A DNA stretch of 64,000 nt. Source: Polyangiales bacterium (lineage in GTDB: Bacteria; Myxococcota_A; Polyangia; Polyangiales; Ga0077539). Shown piece after piece: positions 1,340-32,102 of this stretch. Below the pieces are notes generated by a model. It worked only from the letters and a program-made list of their open reading frames with translations. It did no database searches and was not told the DNA's origin. Position numbers and translations under genes: made by a program. Where the stretch lies: NCBI GenBank assembly GCA_044229975.1, contig JBGARZ010000026.1, forward strand, positions 62,728 to 126,727, in the 5' to 3' direction. How positions within the stretch are numbered: the first letter of the stretch is position 1; every line of letters begins with the position of its first letter.

Positions 1340-1340
1340 C

Positions 1341-14996: not shown

Positions 14997-16057
14997 AGGA
15001 GCGACTGCTGGCCCTGCGGCCCATCCTGCTCCGGGTCATCGGGTACCCGGCGTTCTTCATGTTCTTCTTCGTGCTGTTTCTCTACCTGACCTTTCCGTGG
15101 GACCGGCTGCGCGAGTACATCGTCGCGACCGCCGAAGCGCCGCGCCAGACCACCTCCGGGCGCACCACGCCGTCCAACATGGAACTCTCCATCGGCTCGC
15201 TCTCCCCGACCTTCCTCCCCGGGGTCGAGGCGCGCGACGTGCGGGTCACCTTCCTCCCGCAGCGCTCCACCGACCGCCCGACGGTGATGAACCTCGACAA
15301 GCTCCGACTGCGCCTCGGAGTCTTCGCCCTGCTCGCGCAGCGGGCGAGCATCTCGTTCTCGGTCGTCGGCATGGGCGGCACCATCGACGGCAGCGCCTCC
15401 GTCGCCCTCGGCAAGCCCGCCACGCCGCGCATCTCTCCGCTGCGCGCCTTCGAGGTCACCCTCGCGGACGTTCGCGTCGGCGAGGTCGCCCCGCTCGTCG
15501 CGATGGTGGGCCTCCCGCTGGGCGGCAACCTCTCGGGCAACGTCACCGTCGACATCCCCGAAGGCGACGTCTCGCAGACCACCGGCAGCGTGCGGCTCAC
15601 CGCCGACCGCCTCACCGTGGGCAATGGCCAGGCGCAGTTCCAGATCCCCCACTTCGGCGGCGTGACCATCGAGCAGATCCGCGCCGGGCGGCTCACGGCC
15701 AACGCGGACATCCGCCGCGGCGTGGTGCAGTTCACCAGCGTGTCGGCGCACTCCGAGGAGTTCGACCTCCAGATGGACGGCCGCATCGACCTGCGCCCCA
15801 ACTTCGCCGACAGCGCCCTCAACCTCGGGATGCGCTTCCGCCTCACGGACGTCTACCGCGCCAAGAGCGAGCAGGCCGGGCGCATCATGTCGGTGATGGA
15901 CATGGCCCCCGACCTGCGCCGCGCGCGACGCCCCGACGGGCTCTTCGCCTTCCGTTGCAGCGGCACCTTCGACCGCTCCATCAACTGCCCCCCAGACTCC
16001 CGCGCCTCGGCCACCCCTGCTCCAGGCGTCGCCATGCCCGCGGGCTTCGCCCCCTGA
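14993..16057 (+). CDS. gspN: Type II secretion protein N (deltaproteobacterial type)
   Basis: FLYLTFPWDRL motif after the TM; beta-rich AsmA-like body; last gene of the operon. Confidence 0.8.
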   Translation: MKERLLALRPILLRVIGYPAFFMFFFVLFLYLTFPWDRLREYIVATAEAPRQTTSGRTTPSNMELSIGSLSPTFLPGVEARDVRVTFLPQRSTDRPTVMNLDKLRLRLGVFALLAQRASISFSVVGMGGTIDGSASVALGKPATPRISPLRAFEVTLADVRVGEVAPLVAMVGLPLGGNLSGNVTVDIPEGDVSQTTGSVRLTADRLTVGNGQAQFQIPHFGGVTIEQIRAGRLTANADIRRGVVQFTSVSAHSEEFDLQMDGRIDLRPNFADSALNLGMRFRLTDVYRAKSEQAGRIMSVMDMAPDLRRARRPDGLFAFRCSGTFDRSINCPPDSRASATPAPGVAMPAGFAP

Positions 16058-17473: not shown

Positions 17474-17818
17474 ATGCGCCACCGGGTCAGGTTCGTGCTC
17501 GACGCGGAGCTGCACGTCGCCCCGATGGTCGACGAGACGGAGCGCGACGAGGCGCCACCCGACGCCATGCGCCGCGAGGAAGAACACCTCGCGCAATGGG
17601 TGCTGATGACCCCGACGCGCATCGACGCGGCGTACGTGTTCGACGCGGCCTACGTCGCGGCGCACCCGGAGAGCCTCGACGAGCGGCACCTCGCGCTGTT
17701 GCATGCGCTGCTGGTGTTCAAGCTCTTCGACGACGGCGAGGTGATCGTTCCGCCGCAGCAGGTGGAGGCCGCGCTGCGGTGGCCTGCGATCGACCGTCCG
17801 CGCCGCGCGCTGCGCTGA
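17474..17818 (+). CDS. Hypothetical protein (114 aa)
   Basis: Starts just after the MFS stop; coding-like codon usage; no recognised motif. Confidence 0.55.
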   Translation: MRHRVRFVLDAELHVAPMVDETERDEAPPDAMRREEEHLAQWVLMTPTRIDAAYVFDAAYVAAHPESLDERHLALLHALLVFKLFDDGEVIVPPQQVEAALRWPAIDRPRRALR

Positions 17819-17854
17819 GTTGTAACCGTGGGCTCGACGGCGCGTAGGTGCACC

Positions 17855-18310
17855 ATGAGCCCGCACACCACATTCGTCGCCGTCGTCCTCGCCGCCCTGC
17901 TCCTCGCGGGCTGCACCGATGATCAAGACCCGGCCGGAGCCGCGATGCTCTGGAACCGCATCCACACCGAGAACTACCGCTCGTGGACCCGCGCGCCGGG
18001 CTACCCCGGCCGACGCGACTCCGACACGCTGCACAGCGATCAGGTGGAGATCTACGTCAACGCGGTGGTCGCCGACGCGCTCGCCGCGGGTCGGCCCCTG
18101 ACGTCGTGGCCCGTCGGGTCGCTCATCGTGAAGGACGGCTGGGACTCCGACGGGCTCGCGCTCGTCGCGGCGATGGAGCGCCGGAGCACCGGCTGGTACT
18201 GGGCCGAGTGGCGACCGACGGGGTCGTCGGCGTACTCGGGCGCGCCGTCGATCTGCATCGACTGTCACGCGTCGGGGCAGGACGGTGTGCGCGCCTTCGG
18301 GCTGCCCTGA
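17855..18310 (+). CDS. Cytochrome P460 / c'-beta family lipoprotein
   Basis: Lipobox LLAGC; NYRSW, PVGSLIVKDG, GWYWAEW, C-terminal CIDCH heme motif. Confidence 0.8.
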   Translation: MSPHTTFVAVVLAALLLAGCTDDQDPAGAAMLWNRIHTENYRSWTRAPGYPGRRDSDTLHSDQVEIYVNAVVADALAAGRPLTSWPVGSLIVKDGWDSDGLALVAAMERRSTGWYWAEWRPTGSSAYSGAPSICIDCHASGQDGVRAFGLP

Positions 18311-18323
18311 CCGAACGCTTGAC

Positions 18324-18833
18324 TCAGCCCGCCTCGGCCATCGCCTCGCCGTGGAAGGCCGACCGTGGGCACAGCGCCTTCACCGTCACCCGGCCCGGCA
18401 CCGAGGTGTCGCACGCCAGCCCGCACCGACCCTCGTACGCGATGCGCGCGAGCCCGAGGCCCGTCGCGCCCGGCCGGTTCTCCGCGTAGACCCGCGCGAG
18501 CGCGGCGGAGTACGCCGCAGCGGGCGTCTCGAAGGACCCCACCCACGCGACCCGCTCCGCCAGCAACGTCATGTGACCGGTGGCCTCGTCGACGACGTTG
18601 GTCACGGCGATCTCCACGCCGTCGTCACGGTGCTCGATGGCGAGCGCCACGCTCGACGCGGGCCGCGAATACTTGATGGCGTTTTCCAGCAGCTCCTCGC
18701 TCACCATCGCGAGCGCGTCGCGCAGGTTGTCGTCGCCGAAGAGCGCCAGCACCAGCAGGCCAACAGCCTCGCGCGCGGGGTCGATCTTCGACCAGTCGGC
18801 CGGGATGTCGAGCGAGAGATGGAGCGCCGTCAC
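18324..18833 (-). CDS. SiaB/Slr1658-like GHKL (anti-sigma-type) Ser/Thr kinase, copy 1
   Basis: N-box EELLENAIKY, VTN, G-box TGLGLARIAYEG; GTGA-coupled to the upstream STAS-like gene. Confidence 0.75.
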   Translation of the reverse strand: MTALHLSLDIPADWSKIDPAREAVGLLVLALFGDDNLRDALAMVSEELLENAIKYSRPASSVALAIEHRDDGVEIAVTNVVDEATGHMTLLAERVAWVGSFETPAAAYSAALARVYAENRPGATGLGLARIAYEGRCGLACDTSVPGRVTVKALCPRSAFHGEAMAEAG

Positions 18834-19222
18834 GCGCCGGCCTCGTCGACGGACAGCAGCACGAAGAGCCCGTCGGGCTTCACGAAGACCCGCAGCGCGT
18901 CGAAGCTGAGCCGCTGCCACTGCCGCTTGGGGTCGGACACCACCACCAGCCGAACGCCCCGCTGCTGCGCCGTCTGGATGAGGTTGATGAGGCTCGCGAT
19001 GGTGGAGCTGTTGAAGTGCCCGAGCGCCTCGAAGCGCAGCTCCAGCGGGGCGCTCAGCGAGGCGGCGAGGTCGAGCGCCTGCTCCAGGTACGGGAGGATG
19101 AGCTGGTCGGCCTGGCGGGCGTTGCTCTTGCCGCTCCAGGCGAGGCGCACCGCGGAGGGGGTCTCCCTCACCGTGGCTTCGATGCGGAGGTCACCGGAGA
19201 CGAGGTCTTGCAGGGTGTTCAT
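18830..19222 (-). CDS. SiaC/Slr1659-like STAS phospho-acceptor protein, copy 1
   Basis: LAWSGKS...PLELRFEALGHFNSSTIASL...WQRLSF, resembling SiaC LSMQGDS...YLNTSS. Confidence 0.72.
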   Translation of the reverse strand: MNTLQDLVSGDLRIEATVRETPSAVRLAWSGKSNARQADQLILPYLEQALDLAASLSAPLELRFEALGHFNSSTIASLINLIQTAQQRGVRLVVVSDPKRQWQRLSFDALRVFVKPDGLFVLLSVDEAGA

Positions 19223-19269
19223 GCGTTGGGTTTCAGGAGGCTGTGGCAGAGGGGATGGTGGAGGGACAT

Positions 19270-20229
19270 CTACGGGGACGGTCGACCGACGAGCTCGATG
19301 CCGAGCAGGGTGACGTCGTCGGTGAGCCCCTGCTTCCCGACGAAGCTCTCCAGCTGCGTCACCGCGCGCTGCACCACCGCGTCGAGGTCGCCCTCGCCCG
19401 CGAGCGCGCCGAGCACCCGGTCGACGCCAAACTCCTCGTCGCCGACCCACTCCTCGACGAGCCCGTCGCTGAAGAGGAAGAGCCGGTCGCCGCGCTCGGC
19501 GTCGAAGGTCACCGAGGGGAAGTCCACGCCCGTCATCACGCCGAGGAAGGGCCCCGGCTGGTACATCTGCCGACCCTCTCCGCGCACCACGTGGACGAGC
19601 GGCGGGTGCGCAGCCGTCGCGTAGGTCACGCGCGCGCCATCTCCCCCGGGGCGCACGTCGAAGCACGCCGCAGTGCAGTGCAGCTCCAGCCCTGGATAGA
19701 CCGAGGCGATCTGCTCGTTGAGGCCCGCGAGCACCTCCCTCGGCGTCGCCGCGTCGCGGACGCCGTCGTACTCCGACTTCAGGATCATCGTGCGCAGCGC
19801 GGCCTGCACCCCGTGCCCGATGGCGTCGGCGATGAACACCCGCCACCCGCCACCGTCGAGCGCGCTCACGCTGTAGAGGTCGCCGCCCACCTCCTCGGCC
19901 GGGCGGTACGCCACCGCGAAGCGGAGCACGTCGCTCACCGGCGGACGCGGCAGGATGCGCTGCTGGAAGGTGCGGGCCTGCGCGAGGTCTTCGCTCAGGC
20001 GACGGTCCTTCTCTTCGAGCACGCGGAGGGCGGAGGCGAGGTTGGCGTTGGCCTCGTTGACCCGCGCGTTGGCGGCGGCGAGCTCGGCCGCGTACTCCTC
20101 CATCTCCAGCACCCGGCGCTGCTGCGCGGCCATCGCCTTGGCGGCGACGCGGGTCTTCTGATCGAGCTGCTCGCGCAGCCGGCGGTTTTCGTCGGCGAGG
20201 TCTTCCTGGTGGAGCGTGAGCAGGCTCAT
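19270..20229 (-). CDS. PP2C (SpoIIE/RsbU/SiaA-type) phosphatase with N-terminal coiled coil
   Basis: ARTFQQRILP, VGGDLY, IADAIGHG, AAHPP, FSDGLVE, DDVTLL. Confidence 0.9.
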   Translation of the reverse strand: MSLLTLHQEDLADENRRLREQLDQKTRVAAKAMAAQQRRVLEMEEYAAELAAANARVNEANANLASALRVLEEKDRRLSEDLAQARTFQQRILPRPPVSDVLRFAVAYRPAEEVGGDLYSVSALDGGGWRVFIADAIGHGVQAALRTMILKSEYDGVRDAATPREVLAGLNEQIASVYPGLELHCTAACFDVRPGGDGARVTYATAAHPPLVHVVRGEGRQMYQPGPFLGVMTGVDFPSVTFDAERGDRLFLFSDGLVEEWVGDEEFGVDRVLGALAGEGDLDAVVQRAVTQLESFVGKQGLTDDVTLLGIELVGRPSP

Positions 20230-21383
20230 GGCTTCTCTCCAAACACCAGCGCCGTCAGCGTGGTGTTGACCGCGAGGCCGTTGAACACCTCGAAGGACAC
20301 GTTGAAGCCCGCGGAGGGCGGGCCCGCGGCGAGCGTTGCGCCGATCGCGTCGAGCTTGCCGAGCGCCTGCGCGAACCACGTCCGTCCGCCGCAGTGGAAG
20401 AGCAGCGCGGCCTTCGGGTTGGGCACCCGCGCGGGGATCTCCTCGGCCAGGAAGCGCCGCGTCGTCTCGACCATGTCGTCGAGGCGCATGATCTCCATCT
20501 CGGTGCCCTCCTCCAGCAGGTTGGCGAAGACGATGGAGCCATCGGGCAAGGGCTTCCACGGCGCGCGCACGATGTACTCGCGCCCCATCTTGATGGCCGT
20601 CGGCCGCATCGCGAAGCCCTTCGGCAGACCGAACTCCAGCTCGTCGATTCCGACGCCGAGGATCTCCGCGTAGCGCGCGGCGGCGGGCTTGCCGTCGATC
20701 TCCAGCGCGCGGGTGCAGGCCGCGTCGACCCGCGTGACGGTGAGCATCTCGCCGGTGGGCGAGTACCAGTGCGAGCGCATCGCCGCGAAGGGCGCGTCGG
20801 ACTTGAACAGCGCCGTCAGGACGCCGTCGGTGAGCACCTCGCCGTCGACGTGGAGGACGGGCTGGGACACGCCGTCCATCGGGCCCGAGGCGCCGCCGCC
20901 CACGAGGGTCACGTCGGCGCCGCCGGAGAGCATGCCGATGAGGAGTTCTTCCTTCTTCATGCGCGAGCCGTCGTCGATGACGAGGCCGACGTGGCTGCGG
21001 CGGTCGAGGTCGGAGGCGCGTACGCCGAGGTCGTCGCAGGCGTTTTTCATCGCCGCGGCGCCGGCCGCGATGGCGTCGTTGCTCAGGTCGCGCCCGAGGC
21101 CGAGGCCCACCTCGAAATCCCCCGAGAGGGCGCCGAGCACCACCGTGCCGTCGTGGAAGCCGTCGCGGTCGAGCTCTCCCGTGGTGGTCGCGCCCACGAG
21201 CCGGGTGCCCTTCGGCAGCCGCTCGCGCACCGCGCGGTTGAGCGCGAGCTGGTCGCGGTCAAACGAGGCAAACATCGTCACGAGCTTGGGCGTGTCCCCG
21301 GAGAGCGCGGAGAGCAGCGCCTCCGCCGCCGCGTTCGGATCCGTGAGTGTGGTGCGCACCGACTGGAACGACGTCTTCGACAT
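20226..21383 (-). CDS. Stand-alone FIST (NosP-like) sensory protein
   Basis: VGATTTGE, LVGGGAS, ALEIDGKPAA.RY, FHCGGR, NTTLTALVF; ATGA overlap with the PP2C gene. Confidence 0.85.
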   Translation of the reverse strand: MSKTSFQSVRTTLTDPNAAAEALLSALSGDTPKLVTMFASFDRDQLALNRAVRERLPKGTRLVGATTTGELDRDGFHDGTVVLGALSGDFEVGLGLGRDLSNDAIAAGAAAMKNACDDLGVRASDLDRRSHVGLVIDDGSRMKKEELLIGMLSGGADVTLVGGGASGPMDGVSQPVLHVDGEVLTDGVLTALFKSDAPFAAMRSHWYSPTGEMLTVTRVDAACTRALEIDGKPAAARYAEILGVGIDELEFGLPKGFAMRPTAIKMGREYIVRAPWKPLPDGSIVFANLLEEGTEMEIMRLDDMVETTRRFLAEEIPARVPNPKAALLFHCGGRTWFAQALGKLDAIGATLAAGPPSAGFNVSFEVFNGLAVNTTLTALVFGEKP

Positions 21384-21492
21384 AGGGCCCCGCGAGGGTC
21401 GCACCAGTGAGCGCGCGGTTCCAGGGGCGATTGGGCGCCATGGTGTGACACGGGTGCCCCCCAGTGTTGGGTTTGGGGATATCGTCCCGGCG

Positions 21493-22896
21493 ATGTCGGT
21501 GCAGGACCAGACGGTCGACGCGAGCGTCGGGGACCATCCAGAGCGCCTGGAGTCCCAGCGCCCCGGGGTGATGGTGATCTTCTCGGCGGCGCGCCCGGCG
21601 TGCACCGCCATCGCGCTGGAGGACGGCGCGCTGGAGATCGGCCGAGGCCCGGTGGGCCACGTGACGCTCGACGACACGCGTCTGTCGCGCAAACACGGCC
21701 GCATCGCGCGCACGGCCGATGGTTGGACCATCGAAGACCTCGGCAGCCGCAACGGGACGTGGCTCGATGGGGTTCCGGTGACGACGGCCGTGACGGTGGC
21801 GGCGCCGCGGGTCGTGCGCATGGGCGACACGCTGCTGCTGCCCGTGGCCGACATCACGCCCTTCGCCGGCCACCGGCCGTCGCGAGAGAGTGGTCCCGTC
21901 GCGGGGCCGACGTTGCTCCGTGCGTGGCAGGCCATCGCGCGCCTCGCGCGCGCGGTCGAAGCGCTGCACATCACCGGCGAGAGCGGCGCCGGCAAGGAGC
22001 TCGCGGCGCGCACCTTCCACGACGCGGGGCCGCGGAGCACCGGGCCCTTCGTGGCCGTCAACTGCGCGGCCATCCCCGAGGGCGTGGCCGAGCGCTTGTT
22101 GTTCGGGGCGCGCAAGGGAGCCTTCTCGGGCGCGGTCGCCGACGCCGAGGGCTACGTGCAGGCGGCCCACGGCGGGACGCTCTTCCTCGACGAGGTCTCG
22201 GAGCTCGACCTGTCGGTGCAGGCCAAGCTCCTGCGGGTGCTGGAGACGCACAAGGTGATGGCCCTCGGCGCGACCAAGGCGCAGGACGTCGACGTTCGCA
22301 TCGTGTCGGCGACGCACCGCGACCTCCGCGCGCAGGTGGCCGCGGGCAAGATGCGCGAAGACCTCTACTTCCGCATCGGGCGGCCGTGCGTGGCGCTGCC
22401 GCCGCTGCGATCGCGGGGCGACGAGGTGCCGTGGCTGGTCGAGCGCGCGGTGCGGAAGGCGCTGCCCGAGGCGAGCGCGCACGTCACGCTGGTGGAGGCG
22501 TGCCTGCTGCGAGAGTGGCCGGGCAACGTGCGCGAGCTGTTTGCCGAACTCCAGGGCGCCGCCCAGGAGGCGCAGGCCGAGGGGCGCACCGTCGTCGAGG
22601 CGCGGCACCTGCCCGAGACGGCGGGGAGGGCCTTTCGGGCGAGCCAGGTTCCGGCGGAGGTGACGTCCGACGGCGCAGCGGCGACGGCGTCGAAGGCCCC
22701 GCGGGTGTCGCGACCGCCCCCGGAGCCCGCGGAGATCATCGCCGCCCTCCAGGACCAGCAGGGAAACATCTCTCGCGCCGCGCGGGCGCTCGGCCTGCAT
22801 CGCACGCAGCTCCGGCGGCTGTTCGAGCGGCACGGCATCGAGCCGCGGCGGTACGGGGCCGACGGGACGGCGCCCGAGCCCGACGAGCCCGAGTGA
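21493..22896 (+). CDS. FHA-domain sigma54-dependent activator (bEBP) with Fis-type HTH
   Basis: FHA: IGR..SRKHG..DLGSRNGT; AAA+: GESGAGKE, LFGARKGAFSGA, GGTLFLDEV, REDLYFR, WPGNVREL; HTH: GNISRAARALG. Confidence 0.93.
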   Translation: MSVQDQTVDASVGDHPERLESQRPGVMVIFSAARPACTAIALEDGALEIGRGPVGHVTLDDTRLSRKHGRIARTADGWTIEDLGSRNGTWLDGVPVTTAVTVAAPRVVRMGDTLLLPVADITPFAGHRPSRESGPVAGPTLLRAWQAIARLARAVEALHITGESGAGKELAARTFHDAGPRSTGPFVAVNCAAIPEGVAERLLFGARKGAFSGAVADAEGYVQAAHGGTLFLDEVSELDLSVQAKLLRVLETHKVMALGATKAQDVDVRIVSATHRDLRAQVAAGKMREDLYFRIGRPCVALPPLRSRGDEVPWLVERAVRKALPEASAHVTLVEACLLREWPGNVRELFAELQGAAQEAQAEGRTVVEARHLPETAGRAFRASQVPAEVTSDGAAATASKAPRVSRPPPEPAEIIAALQDQQGNISRAARALGLHRTQLRRLFERHGIEPRRYGADGTAPEPDEPE

Positions 22897-22904
22897 TCGG
22901 GGCA

Positions 22905-22937
22905 GATTGACCCGCGGGTCGACCGGCGATTGACCCG
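22905..22937. repeat. 10-bp direct repeat pair with an embedded palindrome
   Basis: GATTGACCCG at 22905 and 22928; GACCCGCGGGTC palindrome at 22909-22920. Confidence 0.4.
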
Positions 22938-23009
22938 ACGGGAGTCCTTCGGGTACGCGCCACGGGCAGGAGGCGCGTAAGGTGCCGCTTCGAAGGGACC
23001 CGTAGACCG

Positions 23010-26000
23010 TTGTCCGAGCCGTTGCTGTCCTCGCGCTTCACCGTCCTCCGCAAGCTCGGTAGCGGCGGCTTTGGCGCCGTCTTCGAGGTGCAGGATCGGG
23101 CGCGCGAGCAGCGGGTGGCGCTGAAGAAGCTGGTGCGCGTCGACCCGGCGGCGATCTACCGCTTCAAGCAGGAGTTCCGAGCGCTGGCGGAGGTGCGGCA
23201 CCCCAACCTGGTGCGCCTGCACGAGCTCTTCTGCGACGACGGCGAGTGGTACCTCACCATGGACCTCGTCAACGGCGTCGACCTGCACGCCTGGCTCCGC
23301 GGCCCGTCGAGCACCCCGCCCCCGCGGCTCCCGACGATGCACCCGGCCAACGCCGCGACGATGCCCATCGACGAGCACACCACCTCGCCGTTGAACCACC
23401 TGCCCGCGGGCCCGATGACCCTCGTCCCGAAGCCCCCGTGGCGCTTCGACGAGGCGCGGGTGCGCGCGGTGTTTCCGCAGATCGCGCTGGGCGTGCAGGC
23501 GCTCCACGAGGCCCGCTGGCTGCACCGCGACCTCAAGCCCTCCAACGCCATGGTCACGGCCGACGGGACGGCGGTGCTCCTCGACTTCGGGCTCGTCGCC
23601 AGCACCCTCTCCGACGCGCCGCCCTCGCTCGACCACGAGGTCATCGGGACGCCCACGTACATGTCCCCGGAGCAGGCGTGCGACGGCCCCATCACGGCCG
23701 CCAGCGACTGGTACGCCGTCGGCGTCATGCTCTACGAGGCGCTCACCGGGTCGGCGCCGTTCACCGGGTCGATGTTTCAGGTGCTGCACCACAAGTGCAC
23801 CCGCGAGGTCGACGACCCGCGACCCCTCCACCCGGGCCTGCCGGACGACCTCGTCGAGCTGTGCCTCGCGATGCTCTCGCTCCACCCCGAGCGCCGCCCG
23901 TCGGGGCCGGAGGTGCTGCGCCGCCTCCTGCCCGAACGCCCCACCGAGGACGTCACCCCGTCCGGCGTGCGGGAGCTCCCCTTCGTCGGGCGCTCGCGCC
24001 ACCTCGATGTGCTGCGCGCCCGCCTCGCCGAGGCCGAGTCCGGCCGTCCCGCCTTCGTCGAGATCTCCGGGCGCTCGGGCATGGGCAAGAGCGCCCTCGC
24101 CCGGAGGTTTCTCTCCGAGCTCGTCAACCGTCCCGGCGCCGTCGTGCTCCGTGGCCGATGCCACGCCCACGAGGCCGTCCCCTACAAAGCCTTCGACGGC
24201 GTCGTCGACGGGCTCACCCGCCGCCTGCTCGCCCTCGGCGACGAGCGCGCCTCCGTCATCCCCGACGACGCGCTCTCCACCCTCGCCCGCCTCTTCCCCT
24301 CGCTCTCGCGCCTGCCCCGCGAGTCGTCGCTCAACGAGGCCCCGCCCGCCCGCGACGCCGCCGAGCTCCGCCGCCTCGCCTTCGCCGCCCTCCAGCGCGC
24401 CCTCACCCGCCTCGCCGCCCGCGGAACCGTCGCCATCGTCGTCGACGACCTCCAGTGGGGCGACGCCGACAGCGCCGCGCTGCTCATCGAGCTCCTCGCC
24501 CCGCCGCACGCCCCGCCGGTGCTCTTCGTCGCCTGCCACCGCAGCGAGGAGGCGGCCCACAGCCCGATGCTCCGCCTCCTGCGCGACGCCCGCGCCCGCG
24601 GTGCGCTGGCCGAACCCACCGTGGTGGAGGTCGGTCCGCTCGACGACGACGACGCCTTCGACCTCGCGCGCGCCCTCCTGCCCGAGGCGCCCGAGGCCGC
24701 CGCGCGGGCCGTCGTGCGCGAGGCCGGCGGCAACCCCCTCTTCGTGCAGGAGCTCGCCCGCTCGATGGCCGGCGGCCGCACCAGCGACGGAGCCCTCACC
24801 CTCGCGGGGGTGCTCGCGACGCGCGTGGGTCGACTGCCGCCCGACGCCCGCACGCTGCTCGGCGTCGTCGCCCTCGCGGGTCACCCCCTCGACGAACGCC
24901 TCGCCCGCGACGCAGCCGACCTCAACGCCCTCGCCTTCGATCGCGCGCTCCGGGCGCTGCTCGCGACGCAGCTCCTGCGGCCTGGTGGGGCGGGCGCCCG
25001 CTCGACGCTCGAAGCCACGCACGACGCCATCCGCGACGCGGCCCTCGTGGGCCTCTCGCCCGAGACGCTCGCCGCGCTGCACCGCAGCCTCGCGCGGGTG
25101 CTGGAGGTCGATCCGCACACCGAGCCCGATGCCCTGGCGTTGCACCTGCGCGCGCTCGGCGAGCACGCCGAGGCTCAACGCCTCGATGAGCTCGCGGGCG
25201 ACCGCGCCGTCGATGCGCTCGCCTTCGACCGCGCCGCGGCCCTCTTCCGACGCGCGCTCACCCCCGATGCTCCGCCGCACGCGGGCGCGCTGCGGGTGAA
25301 GCTCGGCGACGCCCTCGCCCACGCGGGCCTCGGGGCCGAGGCCGCGCGCGCCTACCTGCTCGCGGCCGCCGATATGTCGCCCTCCGCGGCCCTGGAGCTC
25401 GAACGCCGCGCCGCCGAGCAGCTCCTCCGCTCGGGCCACGTCGACGAGGGGGTCGAGGTCATCCGCAGCGTGCTGCTCGCGCTGGGCATGGTGTTTCCGG
25501 AGTCGTCGGAGGCGGCGCGGGCGTCGCTCGACGCGCGGCGGGCGTCGCTCGACGAGCAGGGCCACACCTTCGACGAGCGGGCCGCCGTCGCGCGCGACCC
25601 GCAGGCCCTCGCGCGCCTCGACGTGTGCTGGTCGGTGGGCAACGGCCTCGGCGGCGTGTCGCCCATCGTGGGTGCCGACTTCCACGCCCGACACGTCGAG
25701 CTCGCGCTGCAGGCGGGCGACGTGGCGCGCGTGGCGCGAGCCCTCTCGTGGGGCGCGATGCTGGCGGCGATGGAGGGCGGCACCGGGGCGCTGCGCGCGG
25801 ACGCGCTCGCGGAGCAGGCGGAGTCCATGGCCGAGCGGGCGGAGCACTCGCACGCGCTGGGCTGGTCAGTCGCGGCGGCGGCCGTGACGGCGTTTTGCGA
25901 GGGGCAGTGGCGGCGGGCGGCGCAGCTCTGCGAGTACGGCGCGGCCCTCTTCCGCGAGCGCTGCGTCGACATCGCGTGGGAGCTGGGCGAGCTGGAGGTG

Positions 26001-26750
26001 CGCTGGCACCTGCCCGCCCGCGCCTACCGCGGCGAGCTCCAGCTCCTGGCCGACCGCGCCGCGCAGGCCGCGCGCGAGGCGGCGGCGCGGGGCGATCGGT
26101 ACAACCTCACCAACGTTCGGACGACGGTGCTGCCGCTCGTGCACCTCTCCCACGATCAGCCCGCCGAGGCGCGGCGCATGGTGACCGAGACCATCGCGAC
26201 ATGGTCGACGAGCGGGTTTCACCTCCAGCACGCCAACGCCGCGCTCGCGCTCGCGCAGGTCGCGATCTACGAAGGCGACGCGGCGCGGGCCACCTCCGAG
26301 CTGACCGCGTTGCGACGCTCCCTCGATGCTGCGCTCTTCATGGGGATGCTCGTGGTGCGCGCGCCCTGGCACCACCTCCGCGGGGTGGCCGCCGTGGCCG
26401 CGAGCGCGGGCGTGACGGGGCCGGCGCGGCGGGCGTTGCTGCGTGAAGCGGTGCGGTCGGCGCGAGCGCTGCGCGCCGAGGGCCGCGAGTGGACCGAGGG
26501 GCTGGCGCTCTGCGTGGCGGGCGGGGTGCACCTCGCGCGGGGCGAGACGGCGCGCGCGATCGCGGCGTGGCAGCGGGCGGCCGAGACGCTCACGGGGACG
26601 GAGATGGCCCTGCACGCGCTGGCGGCGCGGCGAGCGGGCGCGCGGGCCGCGGGTGATGTGTCGGCGGTGGCCGACATCGAGCAGGCGATGGCAGCGTGCG
26701 GGGTGGCGGCGCCCGCGCGGTGGGGCGCGCTCGTGGTGCCGGAGTTGTGA
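23010..26750 (+). CDS. Ser/Thr protein kinase fused to a STAND/AAA_16 ATPase and helical repeats
   Basis: GSGGFG, VALK, HRDLKPSN, DFG, GTPTYMSPE; FVGR, Walker A GRSGMGKS, Walker B VDDLQWGD, GGNPLF; TTG start uncertain. Confidence 0.92.
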   Translation: MSEPLLSSRFTVLRKLGSGGFGAVFEVQDRAREQRVALKKLVRVDPAAIYRFKQEFRALAEVRHPNLVRLHELFCDDGEWYLTMDLVNGVDLHAWLRGPSSTPPPRLPTMHPANAATMPIDEHTTSPLNHLPAGPMTLVPKPPWRFDEARVRAVFPQIALGVQALHEARWLHRDLKPSNAMVTADGTAVLLDFGLVASTLSDAPPSLDHEVIGTPTYMSPEQACDGPITAASDWYAVGVMLYEALTGSAPFTGSMFQVLHHKCTREVDDPRPLHPGLPDDLVELCLAMLSLHPERRPSGPEVLRRLLPERPTEDVTPSGVRELPFVGRSRHLDVLRARLAEAESGRPAFVEISGRSGMGKSALARRFLSELVNRPGAVVLRGRCHAHEAVPYKAFDGVVDGLTRRLLALGDERASVIPDDALSTLARLFPSLSRLPRESSLNEAPPARDAAELRRLAFAALQRALTRLAARGTVAIVVDDLQWGDADSAALLIELLAPPHAPPVLFVACHRSEEAAHSPMLRLLRDARARGALAEPTVVEVGPLDDDDAFDLARALLPEAPEAAARAVVREAGGNPLFVQELARSMAGGRTSDGALTLAGVLATRVGRLPPDARTLLGVVALAGHPLDERLARDAADLNALAFDRALRALLATQLLRPGGAGARSTLEATHDAIRDAALVGLSPETLAALHRSLARVLEVDPHTEPDALALHLRALGEHAEAQRLDELAGDRAVDALAFDRAAALFRRALTPDAPPHAGALRVKLGDALAHAGLGAEAARAYLLAAADMSPSAALELERRAAEQLLRSGHVDEGVEVIRSVLLALGMVFPESSEAARASLDARRASLDEQGHTFDERAAVARDPQALARLDVCWSVGNGLGGVSPIVGADFHARHVELALQAGDVARVARALSWGAMLAAMEGGTGALRADALAEQAESMAERAEHSHALGWSVAAAAVTAFCEGQWRRAAQLCEYGAALFRERCVDIAWELGELEVRWHLPARAYRGELQLLADRAAQAAREAAARGDRYNLTNVRTTVLPLVHLSHDQPAEARRMVTETIATWSTSGFHLQHANAALALAQVAIYEGDAARATSELTALRRSLDAALFMGMLVVRAPWHHLRGVAAVAASAGVTGPARRALLREAVRSARALRAEGREWTEGLALCVAGGVHLARGETARAIAAWQRAAETLTGTEMALHALAARRAGARAAGDVSAVADIEQAMAACGVAAPARWGALVVPEL

Positions 26751-26783
26751 TACGCACGGCGCGAGGCAGGTGAGAGCGACACG

Positions 26784-27152
26784 ATGGATGATTTGAAGAC
26801 GGCCGATCTGGCCATCGCAGTGAAGGAGCTCAGCGAGCCGCCGACGCTGGTGCTCTCGTGGAGCGGCCGCAGCGCCGACCGCTACCCCAACCGGGTGCTG
26901 GGGCCGTTTTTCGCGGAGGCGCTCGACCGGGCGACGGCGATGGGCGCGGCGATGGAGATGCACTTCCACGCGCTGGAGCACTTCAACTCGTCGACCATCA
27001 CCGCCGTCATCGAGCTCATCCAGGAGGCGCGCGCGCGCAACGTGCGGCTGGTGATCGCGTACGACGGCGCCGTGAAGTGGCAGCGGCTGAGCTTCGATGC
27101 GATGCGGGTGTTCAACCGCGGCGACGCGCTGCTGGAGCTGCGACCGTCATGA
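26784..27152 (+). CDS. SiaC/Slr1659-like STAS phospho-acceptor protein, copy 2
   Basis: LSWSGRS...MEMHFHALEHFNSSTITAV...WQRLSFDAMRVF; paralog of 18830-19222. Confidence 0.72.
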   Translation: MDDLKTADLAIAVKELSEPPTLVLSWSGRSADRYPNRVLGPFFAEALDRATAMGAAMEMHFHALEHFNSSTITAVIELIQEARARNVRLVIAYDGAVKWQRLSFDAMRVFNRGDALLELRPS

Positions 27153-27661
27153 GCGCCAACGACTTCCGCTTCTTCATCGACGTCCCGGTGAGCACACAGT
27201 GGGGCAACATCGAGCTGCTGCGATCGTCGGTGCAAAACTGCCTGGCGGCGGTGTTCTCCGACGTGGCCGGGCGCGACGCGATCGCGATGGTGACGGGAGA
27301 GTTGCTGGAAAACGCCGTGAAGTACGGCTGCTGGACGCACGGCGACGGGGTGTTCCGGTTGCAGGTGTGGGGCGACGAAGAGGCGGGGCACATCCAGGTG
27401 GAAAACCCGGTGGACGCTGACGACTCCGGCCCCAAGCGCGTGCAGGAGCTCATCGCGTGGATGCAGACCTTCGATACGCCCGAGGAGGCCTATCACGCGC
27501 GGCTGCTCCAGGTGGCCGCGGCGCCGCGCGGGTCGGCAGGGGGCCTCGGCCTCGCGCGCGTCGTCTACGAAGGCGGCTGCCGGCTGAGGGCAGAGATCGT
27601 GGGGGACAAGTTTCGCGTGGTGGCCGACATGCCGATGAAGCAGCCCGACGAGACGGCGTAG
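27149..27661 (+). CDS. SiaB/Slr1658-like GHKL kinase, copy 2
   Basis: GELLENAVKY, VENPV, GGLGLARVVYEG; ATGA-coupled to STAS copy 2. Confidence 0.75.
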   Translation: MSANDFRFFIDVPVSTQWGNIELLRSSVQNCLAAVFSDVAGRDAIAMVTGELLENAVKYGCWTHGDGVFRLQVWGDEEAGHIQVENPVDADDSGPKRVQELIAWMQTFDTPEEAYHARLLQVAAAPRGSAGGLGLARVVYEGGCRLRAEIVGDKFRVVADMPMKQPDETA

Positions 27662-27688
27662 GCGCTCGGTGGGTCGCCCGATGCGTCC

Positions 27689-29683
27689 CTACCAGATGTT
27701 GGTCACGCTGACGCCGAAGCGAGCCCGTGAGCCCGCGCTGAAGGCGCGCGTGGGCGACGACGGAAGCGCGCCGCTCGCCGGGTCGTAGCCGTACACGCGA
27801 CCATCGGTGGTCGAGTCGCGTGGAGCGCCGACGAACAACCCCCGCGTGCTCGGGTCGAGGTTGGCGATGGCAGCACCGAAGCCGGTGTCGGCGCCGGGTC
27901 CGTCGAGGTCGGTGCGTCGGAGCGCGGCGCTCAGTGTTCGTGCGCCGTGGAGCACCGTCACCCGCCCGGTGACGCTGAGCGAGGGGGCGCTCGCGCCGAT
28001 GTCCCCGATGGCGTCGCCGTCGATGTCGCCGAGGCCGGTGAGGGCGGCGCCGAAGTGTCCCGCGGGTATCGACGGGGCCGTCAGCGTGGCGGCGGCGTTG
28101 GTGTTGACGCCGAGGCCGTTGCCGACATGGATCAGCACCCTGCCGCGGGTGGTGCCGTCGCCGGGGGCGCCGATGGCGAGGTCCGAGAAGCCGTCGTCGT
28201 TGATGTCGCCGACGTGGACCACGACCGAACCGAAGAAGCTCGTCGGGTCGCCGTCGAGGTTCAGTCGATTGTAGGCGGCGGGGAAGATGCCCATGTCCGT
28301 CCCGCGAAACACGTAGACGCCGCCGCGGTCGGACGGAACGCCCCGCGCCCCGACCACCACGTCGCTGTGCGTCTCGGCGTCGAAGTCCGCCTGCCCCGCG
28401 ACCGACCAGCCGAAGTTGGCGCCGACCTCATTGGCGCCCGTGAGCGTCACCCAGACCGACGGGTCGAGGCCGCTGCGACGCCCGCGGTAGACGAACGCGC
28501 GACCGCGACCGCCGACGGCCTGGGGCTGCCCCACGATGACGTCCGCGTAGCCGTCCACGTTGGTGTCGCCGGCGCCATCGAGGGAGAAGCCGAAGGAGAG
28601 TCCCTCCGTGGCGACGAGGCCCGCGCCGCGGCGCAGCGCGAGCCCGGCGGCTCCATGGAAGATCTCGACGGTGCCTTGCGAGGTGGACTCGTCGTAGGCC
28701 GAGACCCCGAGGTCGGTGTAGCCGTCGCCGTCGACGTCGCCGACGCACGCGACCACGGCGCCGAAGCCCGGCGCGCCATCGGCGGAGGTGAGCACCAGAT
28801 CGGGCGCGGGGAGCGTCGTGCCGAAGGGGCCGCGCCAGACGTACACACGACCGGCGCCGCTGTTCGCGCCGGGACCGCCAACCGCGACGTCCGCGTTGCC
28901 ATCTCCGTCGAGGTCGAGGACGGAGCCGAAGGCGTTTTCGCGCGGCGGTCGGAGCGGTGAGACCCAGAACTCCCAGGTGTCGCTCCAGAGGTCCGTGTGC
29001 GCGCCCGAGAAGAGGAGACCGCGCATGCGCCAGAAGTGGGCGCCGACGGCGAGGTCGGCGGTGACGGTTCCGACGTAGCCGCGCTGGTCGAAGGCGGCCT
29101 CGGGCATGGTGCACGCGCGGTCGCGGCAGACCTGCACCGACGCGCCGACGAGCGGGCCCGCGAGGTCCCACCGCAGCGTCGGACGGGCGACGGTCACCAT
29201 CGACCCGACGGGCGGACCAATGGGCCGCGGCGCGAAGACACCGCTGTCCGCTGGGGGAACATCGATCGGCACATCGACGGAAACGTCGACGGGAGCGACC
29301 GCATCCATGACGACAACAACGTCGGGTGGAGGAACATCCACCGCCTGAACGTCGGGCACGTCCGCGGGCGGCACGTCAGCAACGTCCATGGTCTGAACGT
29401 CGGGTACATCCGCCGTCGGAACATCGACCCCGGCATCGATCGCCGGTCGGTCGTCCGCGGGTGCATCGACGCGGTCGTCGATCGCGACGTCGGTGGCCAT
29501 CACGTCGAGGGCCGTGTCCCCGCCGACATCGCGCCCGACGTCTGCCGCGCCGAGGTCGACCGCCTCGTCGGCGTCGGGCACGTCGATGGAGTGGGTGCGA
29601 AACCCCGGGCAGCCCGCGACCGTCGCGACCAGGAGCGCGAGGTGGAGGCAGCGAAGCGCAGACAGACCAGGCAGGCTCGGCAT
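27689..29683 (-). CDS. FG-GAP / integrin-alpha-like beta-propeller lipoprotein
   Basis: Lipobox VAGC, Asp/Val/Pro linker, CRDRACT domain, repeats DLDGDGNADVAVGGP, GDVDGDGYTD, GDINDDGFSDLAIGAP. Confidence 0.88.
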   Translation of the reverse strand: MPSLPGLSALRCLHLALLVATVAGCPGFRTHSIDVPDADEAVDLGAADVGRDVGGDTALDVMATDVAIDDRVDAPADDRPAIDAGVDVPTADVPDVQTMDVADVPPADVPDVQAVDVPPPDVVVVMDAVAPVDVSVDVPIDVPPADSGVFAPRPIGPPVGSMVTVARPTLRWDLAGPLVGASVQVCRDRACTMPEAAFDQRGYVGTVTADLAVGAHFWRMRGLLFSGAHTDLWSDTWEFWVSPLRPPRENAFGSVLDLDGDGNADVAVGGPGANSGAGRVYVWRGPFGTTLPAPDLVLTSADGAPGFGAVVACVGDVDGDGYTDLGVSAYDESTSQGTVEIFHGAAGLALRRGAGLVATEGLSFGFSLDGAGDTNVDGYADVIVGQPQAVGGRGRAFVYRGRRSGLDPSVWVTLTGANEVGANFGWSVAGQADFDAETHSDVVVGARGVPSDRGGVYVFRGTDMGIFPAAYNRLNLDGDPTSFFGSVVVHVGDINDDGFSDLAIGAPGDGTTRGRVLIHVGNGLGVNTNAAATLTAPSIPAGHFGAALTGLGDIDGDAIGDIGASAPSLSVTGRVTVLHGARTLSAALRRTDLDGPGADTGFGAAIANLDPSTRGLFVGAPRDSTTDGRVYGYDPASGALPSSPTRAFSAGSRARFGVSVTNIW

Positions 29684-29694
29684 CGCGTCGTCGC

Positions 29695-30720
29695 TCAGAA
29701 CCGCAGGGTACAGCCGACGCCACCAGGCGCGGGCACGCATGTCACCGCGGACGTTCGCTCACCTGGCGCGGCGCTGCCCGCTCGCACCCAGGCGTAGACC
29801 GCGCCCGCCGCGAAGACCCCCGCCGCAACGCCAGTGACGATGGCCGCCGTGCTCGTCGCTCCGACGTCGCTGTGGGCCGAGACGCAGTCCGCGCCGCCGA
29901 TGGGGAGCCCGCTCGCCGCGTCGACGAAGCATCGGTCGTCGCCCTGAAACGCGTCGTAGCGCGACTGCCGGACGATGAGCGAGACCACCGCTCCGACGGC
30001 GAGCGCGGAGGCCGTGATCGTGGTGGCCCAGGCGACCGGACGCCACGCCGTCGATGGCCGCGGCGAGGGCGCGGCCCTGGGCGGAAGCACCATCACGGGC
30101 GCGGGCGGCGACACCACCGGCACGGGCACCGCAACCACCACCGGCGGCGTGACGGGCGTCGCCGGTGCCTCGGGCTGCATCGGCATCTCTTCGCGCGCCA
30201 CCTGCCCCGCGACGATGGTGACGTCGCGACGAACGACGTAGTAGCCCGCGAGGCGCAGCTCGACCCGCAGCGCACCAACCGGCGCCCAGACGGAGGCCGT
30301 CATCGGGAGCGTCCCGACGGCCGTGCCGTCGATGAGCACCTGCGCCCCTGGAACACCTCCGCTGATCTGGAGCTGACCAAGGTGCTCGCGGATGCGCGCG
30401 AGGTCGGCGTCGAGGCGGGCGCGGCGCGACTCGACCCAGTCGTCGTCGTGTCCGGTGAGCGCCTCGCGGAGGTCGCGCTCGGCATCGACCCAACGACCCT
30501 GCGCCTGCTCGGCCCACGCGAGCTGCACCCGAACCCGCGGCTGCGGGCACCGCTGCGCCAGGTCACGAAACAAGGTCAGCGCGTCCGCGTCGCGGCCCTC
30601 GCGGCGTAGCGCCACGCCGTCGCGAACGCCGCTCGCGCAGCGGTCGGCCGTCTGCGCGAGCGCCGCCGAGGGGAGCGCCGCCATCCAGCACGCGAGGATG
30701 ACCGAAGACCGCACGCTCAC
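29695..30720 (-). CDS. Exported TPR + PEGA domain protein with C-terminal hydrophobic segments
   Basis: Signal peptide, TPR-like helices, PEGA (GAQVLIDGTAVGTLP..VRRDV), C-terminal CTLRF; GTGA-coupled to the kinase. Confidence 0.82.
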   Translation of the reverse strand: MSVRSSVILACWMAALPSAALAQTADRCASGVRDGVALRREGRDADALTLFRDLAQRCPQPRVRVQLAWAEQAQGRWVDAERDLREALTGHDDDWVESRRARLDADLARIREHLGQLQISGGVPGAQVLIDGTAVGTLPMTASVWAPVGALRVELRLAGYYVVRRDVTIVAGQVAREEMPMQPEAPATPVTPPVVVAVPVPVVSPPAPVMVLPPRAAPSPRPSTAWRPVAWATTITASALAVGAVVSLIVRQSRYDAFQGDDRCFVDAASGLPIGGADCVSAHSDVGATSTAAIVTGVAAGVFAAGAVYAWVRAGSAAPGERTSAVTCVPAPGGVGCTLRF

Positions 30721-32102
30721 TCCTCGATGGGCGCGCCGTTGGCGCCGAGCTGCCGACGCGCCGTCCGCACGGTCGATCGCGGACGCGGCGCCGAACGGAT
30801 CGGCGCCACCACGACGGGCGGCGCGACGACGGGCGCCGGGTCGGGCGACGCGACGACAGGGACCGGTGCGGGTGACGGATCGGGAGCGCGGGCGATCACG
30901 GGCGCGGGCTCTACCACGACCGGCGCCAGCGGCCGACGAGAGACGGGCGTCGCGGGCACTCGCGGGGTCGCCACCCACCACAGCACGGCCGCGGCGCCGG
31001 TCGCGAGCAGCAGACCGCCGACGAGGGCGGCGCGCCGGCGCGAGGGAGGCATCGGGCGCACGACGGCCTGGAGCGAATCGGGGTCGGGCGTGGGGGGCGA
31101 CACCACGACATCGACGGGCGGAGGGGGCGCTACGGGCGGAGGCTCTTCGACGGCGGGCGGATCGGCGTGGAAGATGGGGCCCCACGACGCGCGAGACGGC
31201 GGTGACGCGAAGGGGAGCAGGGCGCGCGCGAGGTCGTCGACGGAGGCGTAGCGGGCGCTGATGTCGACGCTCGCGGCGCGCATCACGACGGCCTCGAAGC
31301 CCTCCGGGATCTCGGGGCGAACCGCGCGCGGCGTGACCATCGTGCCCGACACGATGTTGCGCAGCACGACGTAGAGGGACTTGCCGTCGAAGGCCCGGCG
31401 GCCGGTGACGCACTCCGAGAGGATCACCCCGAGGGTGTACTGATCGCTCGGGGCCTGGGCGCTGCGCGGGTCCTGCGCCTGCTCGGGGGACATGTACCAG
31501 GGCGTTCCGATGAGGGCGCCGGTGGCGGTGAGGCCGTCGACGTCGAGGCTGTCGACCTTGGACACGCCGAAGTCGAGCACCTTCACCTGCTCGCGCCCGA
31601 GGCCGTCGCGCGACAGGAAGATGTTGGCGGGCTTCAGGTCGCGATGAACGATGCCCTCCGCATGCGTCGCGGTCACCGCCGCGCAGACCGGCAGCATCAC
31701 CTCCACGGTGCGCGTGACGGAGAGCGCGCCGTCTCGCGCGATGACCTCCGCCAGCGTCTCGCCCTCCAGAAACTCCATCACGAGGTACGGGACCCCGTTG
31801 AGGATGCCGTGGTCGGAGACGTCCACCACGTGCGGGTGGCGCAGCCGCGAGGTGGCCCTCCCCTCGGTCACGAAGCGCGCCCTCGCCCGCGGGTCGTCGG
31901 CGATGCGACGGTGCAGCGCCTTCAGCGCCACGCGCTTGCCGAGCTCGCGGTGCTTCGCCTCGTACACGGCGCCCATGCCGCCTCGCCCGATGCACCGCAC
32001 GATGGCGTACGCGCCAAACGCCGACCCCGGCGGGAGCGTCGGGTCGCGCTCGCTGCCCTCCGACTCGTCCGAGGGCGTTGGCTCTGTCTGCTGCGCACCC
32101 AC
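30717..32102 (-). CDS. Membrane-anchored Ser/Thr protein kinase
   Basis: GRGGMG, VALK, HRDLKPAN, DFG, GTPWYMSPE; TM, Pro-rich tail ending GANGAPI; GTG start approximate. Confidence 0.92.
   Translation of the reverse strand: MGAQQTEPTPSDESEGSERDPTLPPGSAFGAYAIVRCIGRGGMGAVYEAKHRELGKRVALKALHRRIADDPRARARFVTEGRATSRLRHPHVVDVSDHGILNGVPYLVMEFLEGETLAEVIARDGALSVTRTVEVMLPVCAAVTATHAEGIVHRDLKPANIFLSRDGLGREQVKVLDFGVSKVDSLDVDGLTATGALIGTPWYMSPEQAQDPRSAQAPSDQYTLGVILSECVTGRRAFDGKSLYVVLRNIVSGTMVTPRAVRPEIPEGFEAVVMRAASVDISARYASVDDLARALLPFASPPSRASWGPIFHADPPAVEEPPPVAPPPPVDVVVSPPTPDPDSLQAVVRPMPPSRRRAALVGGLLLATGAAAVLWWVATPRVPATPVSRRPLAPVVVEPAPVIARAPDPSPAPVPVVASPDPAPVVAPPVVVAPIRSAPRPRSTVRTARRQLGANGAPIEE

Follow-up and report, generated by a model that had tools for sequence, protein, structure and literature searches.

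Two divergent gene sets, each ending in a small STAS-like gene and a small GHKL kinase-like gene, stand back to back in a Polyangiales genome and raise the question of whether they form one signalling system and, if so, what that system controls. The locus (positions 18324 to 27661) lies in a 64,000-nucleotide stretch of contig JBGARZ010000026.1 of GenBank assembly GCA_044229975.1 (positions 62,728 to 126,727, forward strand), and "the window" below means this whole stretch. The left arm encodes a FIST sensor, a PP2C phosphatase, and a STAS/GHKL pair; the right arm encodes an FHA-domain sigma54 activator (a bacterial enhancer-binding protein [bEBP]), a Hanks-type kinase joined to a STAND ATPase (kinase-STAND), and a second STAS/GHKL pair (Table 1). 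The mirror is a lineage-level arrangement in which two distinct cassettes stand head to head, and the six-component system behind it is real. The same six protein types co-occur in three different layouts. We tentatively favor a reading in which both cassettes come from a single partner-switch family of Myxococcota, brought together at this locus, and the six types act as a serial relay. In what follows, related loci carry L numbers and genomes G numbers (G000 is the genome of the window), and X4 is an independent sequencing run.

The open reading frames (ORFs) and their coordinates confirm the two divergent arms and the intergenic region described in the original prediction. A codon-model gene caller chose the identical eight ORFs, and three gene junctions of the locus have 4-bp overlaps. 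FIST/FIST_C, SpoIIE, FHA/Sigma54_activat/HTH_8, and Pkinase/AAA_16 all passed their Pfam cut-offs, so the profile checks proposed with that prediction for FIST/FIST_C, SpoIIE, FHA, Sigma54_activat, and AAA_16 came out positive. None of the eight proteins has a membrane-like segment (top 19-residue hydropathy, 1.55), and close homologues occur in metagenome-assembled genomes labelled Myxococcales/Myxococcaceae, which makes the host an uncultured myxobacterium. Assembly error is an unlikely source of the mirror, since in X4, one of four runs examined out of 17 listed, a contig that is 1506 bp long, has a depth of 46, and differs from the window at 146 letters spans positions 20668 to 22194, including the gap. 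Because this contig bridges the gap, the layout is real and common to a relative that is about 90% identical. Other X4 contigs (depth, 37 to 48) cover positions 17500 to 20697, 22356 to 26260, and 26454 to 29248.

The mirrored eight-gene layout is not a conserved system: it was present in none of 159 related loci (1.63 Mb), and the arms are unlinked in G001. Of these loci, 79 were drawn from the top 80 of 106 genome matches and the other 80 from the top 80 of 203 metagenome matches. "Mirrored" is true of the layout but not of the pairs, which are only 45% (STAS) and 38% (GHKL) identical to one another and fall into separate clades (path distance of at least 1.5 from one another's groups), ruling out duplication. 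The two arms have separate ancestry. Among eight other genomes of the genus, three have the STAS gene (G001, G003, and G004). G001 carries both arms, on separate contigs and in other surroundings. In G003 and G004 (92% and 94% complete), the right arm is present, and neither the left-arm STAS nor an orthologous FIST gene was found. The left arm recurs as a four-gene operon (FIST > PP2C > STAS > GHKL) in G001, in L039 (Kofleriaceae, with three identical copies), and in L126, with FIST 59% and PP2C 49 to 52% identical. In G001, G003, G004, and three metagenome contigs, the activator has a kinase-PEGA-FG-GAP operon divergently upstream; in the window the orthologous operon is downstream of the right arm and marks the rearrangement. 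DNA homology to relatives stops 13 to 22 bp from each start codon in the gap.

The grouping of FIST, PP2C, kinase-STAND, and FHA activator that the original prediction proposed was borne out in other lineages. In L103 (one metagenome contig, 62% GC), six intact codirectional ORFs are ordered FHA-bEBP > kinase-STAND > STAS > GHKL > FIST > PP2C. The types are rearranged in another genome (L022), where FIST > HK-REC-PP2C diverges from kinase-STAND > STAS > GHKL > FHA-bEBP. L101 preserves the end of a kinase, followed by STAS and an activator. The STAS and GHKL proteins of L103 and L022 cluster with the right arm of the window (seven rows, support 100/97; eight rows including L102, 98/98); L023 grouped with the right arm in a quick tree and not in a careful one. 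All four kinase-STAND-linked lineages with enough context have the activator (the genus of the window, L022, L103, and L101), while L023 and L102 end inside the kinase.

The phosphatase input appears to be the variable part. The FIST proteins of L022 and L103 are 52% identical to one another and both are 25% identical to that of the window, which argues that FIST-PP2C joined the right-arm core twice. A GAF-PAS-PP2C lies near the right arm in G003, G004, and L098 to L100. Its catalytic domain is 53% identical to the L022 phosphatase, to which the window PP2C is 43% identical, and G000 retains an orthologue (68%) on contig C15, unlinked to the locus. On the basis of three lineages, we read the right arm as an inherited four-gene core (activator, kinase-STAND, STAS, and GHKL) with a swappable phosphatase input (FIST-PP2C, FIST-HK-REC-PP2C, or GAF-PAS-PP2C). 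The window lineage likely re-recruited a FIST-PP2C input in the form of a nonorthologous cassette with its own STAS/GHKL pair.

Alternatively, the arms could be independent switches joined by rearrangement and free of cross talk, the right arm using the GAF-PAS-PP2C on C15 and the left arm signalling elsewhere. The distinct clades, a STAS and GHKL protein of its own in each arm, the unlinked arms of G001, the left arm not found in G003 and G004, the inherited PP2C orthologue still in the genome, and the absence of the mirror from the 159 loci are all as this alternative would have them. Yet the locus holds the only two STAS-family genes and the sole FIST gene (20226..21383) detected among about 7,700 genes, and chance adjacency is unlikely because no others were found. 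In addition, the layout persists in the approximately 90%-identical relative, the window reproduces the gene-type set of L103 and L022, and in none of its three lineages does the left-arm operon include an effector gene. We therefore regard independent arms as distinctly unlikely.

Table 1. Features of the locus and its right flank (positions in the window)
Feature	Position	Strand	Characteristics
GHKL kinase-like protein, left arm	18324..18833	-	169 aa; N-box (ELLENA) and lid motif (GLGL) present, His-phosphotransfer domain absent; 34 bits for slr1658_superfam (cut-off, 100) and 16 for DUF6272 (cut-off, 26.6)
STAS-fold phospho-acceptor (predicted), left arm	18830..19222	-	130 aa; Ser72 of the FNSST loop is the predicted site; 26 bits for slr1659_superfam (cut-off, 100)
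SpoIIE-type PP2C phosphatase	19270..20229	-	319 aa; SpoIIE 112.6 bits; N-terminal coiled-coil-like region only, no sensor, no membrane segment
Stand-alone FIST (FIST_N + FIST_C) sensor	20226..21383	-	385 aa; overlaps PP2C start; NosP model 143.6 vs cut-off 450
Divergent gap, junction of two cassettes	21384..21492	.	109 bp; cassettes unlinked in G001; bridged in X4
FHA - sigma54 AAA+ - Fis HTH activator (bEBP)	21493..22896	+	467 aa; GAFSGA loop; N-terminal Thr motif DQT7VD
Hanks-type Ser/Thr kinase - AAA16 (STAND) - TPR protein	23010..26750	+	1246 aa; catalytic and Walker motifs intact
STAS-fold phospho-acceptor (predicted), right arm	26784..27152	+	122 aa; HFN-S69-ST aligned with SiaC YLN-T68-SS; predicted site Ser69
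GHKL kinase-like protein, right arm	27149..27661	+	170 aa
Kinase - PEGA/TPR - FG-GAP operon	27689..32102	-	Downstream of right arm; marks rearrangement; 70-84% nucleotide identity to L019-L021, L098, L099

To which known switch do the small proteins belong? All four gave only subthreshold matches (STAS, HATPase_c, DUF6272, and the NCBIfam slr1659/slr1658 superfamilies). The slr1658/slr1659 models (NF047703 and NF047705) matched most consistently, recovering 101 of 102 GHKL and 57 of 57 STAS family members weakly, with the window proteins at 24 to 38 bits against a cut-off of 100. The SiaC family (PF09345/DUF1987) had no match in either window STAS or elsewhere in the genome (control genomes were also without a match), and 9 of the 57 STAS family members matched it at an E value of ≤0.05 (best, 5e-5). 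For DUF6272, the left GHKL scored 16 bits against a gathering score of 26.6 and the right GHKL had no match; the window proteins stayed below the cut-off of the SiaB model NF038262, which 3 of the 102 GHKL members matched at an E value of ≤0.001. With the curated cut-offs missed, membership of the pair in SiaB/SiaC proper is not supported. Presumably working in the manner of SiaB and SiaC, the pair forms a branch of its own within Myxococcota, still without a name, among the SiaC/SiaB- and slr1659/slr1658-like switches and below every curated cut-off.

Structure points the same way. The AlphaFold model of the right-arm STAS (predicted local distance difference test [pLDDT], 95.6) has a STAS fold with a helix at residues 69 to 84 and resembles SpoIIAA, RsbV, and SiaC (template modelling [TM] score of about 0.6 to 0.65; SiaC, 0.62 to 0.65). 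The family has an invariant F-x-x-x-x-H-F-N-S69-S70-T71 region (57 sequences), so that a predicted acceptor stands at the start of helix 2 as in SiaC. SiaC is phosphorylated at Thr68 in LLYLNTSSIK (PMC7647112), and this residue aligns with Ser69 of the right STAS and Ser72 of the left STAS. The GHKL family retains the N-box and lid motif and has NP/NV at the G1-box position (102 sequences), and its model has an anti-sigma-type GHKL fold. In a profile search of PDB sequences, SiaB (6KKO) was the best match (E value, 0.067); in the structure search, SiaB had the top query TM score listed (0.58) and SpoIIAB came first by E value. Like SiaB, the protein is a stand-alone GHKL fold with an N-box and no His-acceptor domain, encoded beside a STAS gene.

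We then considered what the switch travels with, using a six-frame search of 5 kb around STAS in the 79 genome loci. GHKL was found in 76, PP2C in 51, a Hanks kinase in 40, the activator in 7, and FIST in 2 (38, 33, 25, 7, and 1, respectively, of the 39 loci with full flanks), which supports the predicted Sia-like pairing with PP2C. In random windows of G000, a kinase occurred in 20%, an activator in 8%, and PP2C in 0.5%. The 79 loci are kin and not independent, so no P value is given. The GHKL profile matched in 150 of 401 class genomes; this tally and that of 89 of 401 for the activator (below) each include one unpublished genome, G699, from which no locus was taken and on which no other claim depends.

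The end points of the classical switches are missing from these neighborhoods. As the original prediction had noted, the locus contains neither a GGDEF protein nor a sigma factor. The contig has no GGDEF gene, with 17 in the genome. No linked diguanylate cyclase of the SiaABCD kind was found within 5 kb in any of the 79 loci or of the 39 with full flanks, and the same was true of sigma70 genes, the cognate partners of SpoIIAB/RsbW-type proteins, of which the genome has 54 elsewhere. Across all 159 loci, GGDEF and sigma70 occurred once each. The nearest sigma70-family gene (regions 1.2, 2, and 4; positions 33000 to 34148) lies 5.3 kb past the right arm and is presumably RpoH-like.

The Hanks kinase is thereby the sole conserved candidate effector near the family, in a genome with about 220 Hanks kinases and rpoN. 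Three kinds of kinase adjoin the switch. One is a kinase-FGE clade (33 rows, support 99), and another is kinase-STAND; the third comprises the kinase-STAS fusions, which keep their NSS loop intact in L017 and L197 and are frameshifted in L018. An apparent kinase-GHKL fusion in L018 proved to be a gene-calling artifact across the frameshifted kinase-STAS gene. In the reverse direction, 21 kinase-FGE matches at an E value of <1e-220 in the 401 class genomes had GHKL within 2 kb in 15 cases and at 11.5 kb in 1, with 3 at a contig edge and 2 with none; 34 weaker matches, read by eye, had no listed GHKL within 10 kb, one being unresolved. Kinase-FGE proteins form a clade dedicated to the switch. 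The SiaC protein of Pseudomonas, when unphosphorylated, binds the helical stalks of SiaD, and phosphorylation blocks binding (PMC8457831). A complex prediction of the L062 kinase-FGE (residues 135 to 904) with its STAS scored 0.44 against 0.00 for the best control, weakly supporting an analogous contact; runs agreed on at least 88% of contacts, with a partner pLDDT of at least 83. Among solved pairs, 116 of 157 reached the mark used, as did 2 of 215 mismatched pairs; at 0.60 or under, only 18 of the 157 and both mismatches did so.

The kinase-STAND protein of the window passes both domain cut-offs with intact catalytic and P-loop motifs. A STAS-docking segment in its TPR region (residues 901 to 1000) was considered, as identity there is 58% and 54% in linked proteins versus 20 to 33% in unlinked ones. 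The idea was dropped, as none of the 11 fetched top matches had a STAS gene (the best match was cut at the contig start).

Does the kinase receive the signal of the switch or supply a signal of its own? The original prediction made kinase-STAND a parallel input; the gene contexts place it better between switch and activator, an order that we infer. A rival close to that two-input view, but without switch control of sigma54, has the kinase phosphorylate the activator on one branch and tune STAS or PP2C on another, with STAS acting on an unlinked target (one of the 17 GGDEF proteins or a sigma regulator). Several contexts suit it. Directly upstream of distant GHKL > STAS pairs in five loci (L189, L262, L263, L268, and L271) stands a kinase-AAA16-GAF-PP2C (kinase-STAND-GAF-PP2C) fusion of about 1,700 amino acids. 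FHA-PP2C adjoins kinase-FGE in L043, L050, and L083. The distant L269 (positions 7070 to 10540) has a SiaABCD-like GHKL > STAS > GGDEF operon with a divergent PP2C. Thr71 is invariant in the STAS family, and there is a precedent in which a Hanks kinase phosphorylates a second site on a STAS protein (PMC1847690). That precedent concerns an N-terminal Thr of Rv0516c, whereas no such residue is conserved in the STAS family, which rules it out as the kinase site here. Moreover, the PP2C of the commonest operon has its own dCache-HAMP sensor, and kinase-FGE still stands between PP2C and STAS; no other conserved candidate effector lies near the family. We judge the kinase as input to be rather unlikely.

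The activator has the features of an FHA-type sigma54 enhancer-binding protein (FHA, Sigma54_activat, and HTH_8 with Walker motifs, and rpoN in the genome). The canonical GAFTGA loop is absent from the window protein, which has GAFSGA. This variant is typical of its clade: 37 of the 41 matches from activator-clade loci read GA[FY]SGA, and 33 of the 44 G000 matches read GAFTGA. In a reverse test of 58 activator-clade loci (18 new family matches and 40 of 142 class matches), 46 had a kinase within 6.5 kb and 1 had STAS. A first tree that suggested an activator clade dedicated to STAS (8 of 8) was biased by row choice; STAS-linked activators fall in three subclades among unlinked ones. Together, the neighborhood and reverse counts indicate that the activator follows the kinase and that the switch follows the kinase.

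These counts also bear on the direct link from switch to sigma54 activator that was originally proposed, in which STAS, or GHKL as an antiactivator, would bind the bEBP, or FHA would read the phosphorylated STAS loop. STAS or GHKL does immediately precede the activator in L101 and L022, and a GHKL/STAS pair rewired to transcription is known from CapK/CapS (PMC13373217). However, FHA domains bind phospho-Thr (PMC2875238), whereas the site aligned with SiaC Thr68 is a serine, Ser69. The activator carries a conserved Thr motif of its own; STAS is missing from 57 of 58 activator-clade loci, and the activator from 72 of 79 STAS loci. Direct action is thus very improbable, and the original proposal is not upheld.

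The activator's Thr motif suggests another route. T[IVL][DE] stands 9 to 24 residues ahead of FHA in 28 of 52 anchored activators (6 were not anchored), compared with 2.3% of random N-terminal 15-mers. In GarA and OdhI, the phosphorylated N terminus folds back onto the protein's own FHA domain. The motif resembles the phosphorylated N-terminal ETTS site of these proteins (PMC8546545), and the motif plus the intact FHA make a candidate GarA-like self-binding switch. The clade that shares this motif and GA[FY]SGA in place of GAFTGA is large (89 of 401 class genomes; window positions 21493 to 21560, L195 to L252).

At the input end, the PP2C is a good catalytic candidate (PF07228, 112.6 versus 25 bits), with GGDLY, DAIGHG, FSDGL, and DDVT motifs, intact metal-binding Asp, and low hydropathy. 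Since FIST overlaps or abuts the PP2C gene in all confirmed cases and the window PP2C has no built-in sensor, the phosphatase is likely set by FIST; a weak FIST match in L152 was not upheld by six-frame search. The window FIST did not reach the cut-off of the NosP model NF041558 (143.6 versus 450). The best candidate for the ligand would be a heme/gas or redox cue. Heme and redox genes recur near the family (multiheme cytochrome, MauG-like and DHOR peroxidases, P450 beside L103, and a cytochrome P460-like gene beside the left arm) and hint at a gas or redox cue. The P460-like gene encodes a small lipoprotein, converges on the left arm (window positions 17855 to 18310), and is also adjacent in X4 and not in G001.

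In the relay that we favor, the order would be FIST > PP2C > STAS > kinase-STAND > FHA activator > sigma54. The FIST sensor would set the PP2C phosphatase. By homology to SiaB and SiaA acting on SiaC Thr68, GHKL would phosphorylate and PP2C dephosphorylate Ser69/Ser72. Unphosphorylated STAS would then bind the Hanks kinase in the place of SiaD, as gene context and the weak sister-clade complex prediction suggest. The kinase would phosphorylate Thr7 of the activator, to be bound by the activator's own FHA, as the conserved motif suggests, and the phosphorylated activator would drive sigma54 transcription. A fuller version strikes us as possible but more doubtful: a six-protein cytoplasmic cascade in which FIST is a gas/heme sensor, PP2C/GHKL the switch, and STAS a direct on/off cofactor of kinase-STAND, with the FHA sigma54 activator controlled through its N-terminal Thr switch; Hanks kinases (kinase-STAND and kinase-FGE) would count throughout Myxococcota as partner-switch effectors of a new class, and the FIST input would have been rebuilt from an unrelated cassette.

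Several observations weigh against the relay. Each step is predicted from homology, context, or motif, and the complex prediction is weak and comes from a sister clade rather than from the window proteins. The six-type set rests on three lineages; G001 has the arms unlinked, and no left arm was found in either G003 or G004. The kinship of the 79 loci limits the counts, about half of the family loci have no nearby kinase, most kinase-STAND relatives have no nearby STAS (0 of the 11 top TPR-segment matches fetched), and some genomes in the reverse test of kinase-FGE had also gone into building its model. In the kinase-STAND-GAF-PP2C fusions and beside FHA-PP2C, the kinase is on the input side, and the distant L269 has a SiaD-like GGDEF gene. 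The sigma54 output is a minority wiring, given the activator in just 7 of 79 STAS loci and STAS in just 1 of 58 activator loci; GAFSGA is a variant loop of an activity that is itself predicted; and the best match to a sigma54 -24/-12 site in the gap or in the upstream regions of congeners covered only 8 of 12 positions.

How does this system compare with those already described? SiaABCD of Pseudomonas aeruginosa comprises the PP2C SiaA, the GHKL kinase SiaB, the STAS-like SiaC, and the diguanylate cyclase SiaD (PDB 6KKO and 7E6G; PMC7647112 and PMC8457831). The window shares the PP2C with a small GHKL and a small STAS and the N-[S/T]-S-[S/T] loop where helix 2 begins. It differs in its predicted Ser acceptor, in having no cyclase nearby, in missing the Pfam SiaC and DUF6272 cut-offs, in a cytoplasmic PP2C paired with FIST, and in a Hanks kinase and FHA activator on the effector side. 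For the slr1658/slr1659 superfamilies, the most consistent if weak match, we found no mechanistic account as a partner switch among the literature search listings. SpoIIAA/SpoIIAB/SpoIIE and RsbV/RsbW/RsbU are the top Foldseek matches by E value for both models and share the SpoIIE-type phosphatase and the serine at the start of helix 2, but the window proteins are 10 to 18% identical to them, DxG of the G1 box is replaced by NP/NV as in SiaB, and a sigma factor is missing from the locus and from within 5 kb of the 79 loci.

On the output side, Myxococcus xanthus FHA-domain sigma54 activators are reportedly paired with Ser/Thr kinases; these activators are the subject of Jelsbak et al. 2005 (PNAS 102:3010). 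The window activator likewise adjoins a Hanks kinase, as in the 46 clade loci, but adds the STAS/GHKL/PP2C switch and FIST, which are rare in the clade. The usual partner of NosP is a histidine kinase. The window resembles NosP systems in that its FIST_N + FIST_C protein stands alone, with its gene coupled to the one that follows, and differs in the PP2C partner and the low NosP score; heme/NO (nitric oxide) binding is putative. CapK/CapS is a precedent for a GHKL/STAS pair rewired to transcription, but CapS is itself a DNA-binding repressor (PMC13373217). In PknD-Rv0516c, a Hanks kinase acts on a STAS protein, but at an N-terminal Thr not found in the window family (PMC1847690). Both systems lack FIST, STAND, and a sigma54 activator. 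STAS-kinase fusions were already noted in Sorangium, with no mechanism given (PMC2887360).

A full-text literature search covering few subscription journals returned no description of the window architecture; as far as the searched literature goes, the six-component system is undescribed. Known partner-switch end points are sigma factors, the diguanylate cyclase SiaD, and the repressor CapS. Myxobacteria have hundreds of Hanks kinases, mostly without a membrane sensor, and to our knowledge the way in which such kinases are activated is largely unexplained. If STAS does control a Hanks kinase, this would provide an activation mechanism and a testable role for the unnamed, widespread GHKL/STAS pair. 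The L103 six-gene operon is a compact system that could be rebuilt in vitro. The mirrored layout alone is of little importance.

Some neighboring arrangements deserve mention. Divergently upstream of the six-gene operon of L103 (positions 1340 to 4674) lie genes for a cytochrome P450 and a cNMP-binding/BFD 2Fe-2S/FAD oxidoreductase, which are candidate activator targets. The commonest form of the switch is an operon in loci labelled Kofleriaceae/Haliangiales: BBP2 porin > carboxypeptidase-regulatory-like > cytochrome c554-like multiheme > dCache-HAMP-PP2C > kinase-FGE > STAS > GHKL (L061, L062, L052, L053, L060, L065, L070, L072, L073, L075, L077, L082, and others). Its kinase has an HCD (non-RD) catalytic loop, and the operon resembles an envelope redox-sensing system. 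In other genera of the same family, L017 (positions 4322 to 9812), L018, and L197 have kinase-STAS fusion > GHKL > STAS > dCache-PP2C > FHA activator, with STAS about 30% identical to that of the window; the sister loci L195, L196, L198, and L201 keep the activator without the switch. Elsewhere (L047, L059, L066, L079, L124, L130 to L132, L145, L146, L161, and L164), STAS > GHKL, often duplicated, and a small receiver-domain protein converge on a PP2C gene standing last in an operon that resembles one for fatty acid synthesis (FabI-like, KAS III-like, and CoA transferase). In the window itself, positions 2561 to 16057 hold a cluster that, judged from its translations, resembles a type II secretion operon.

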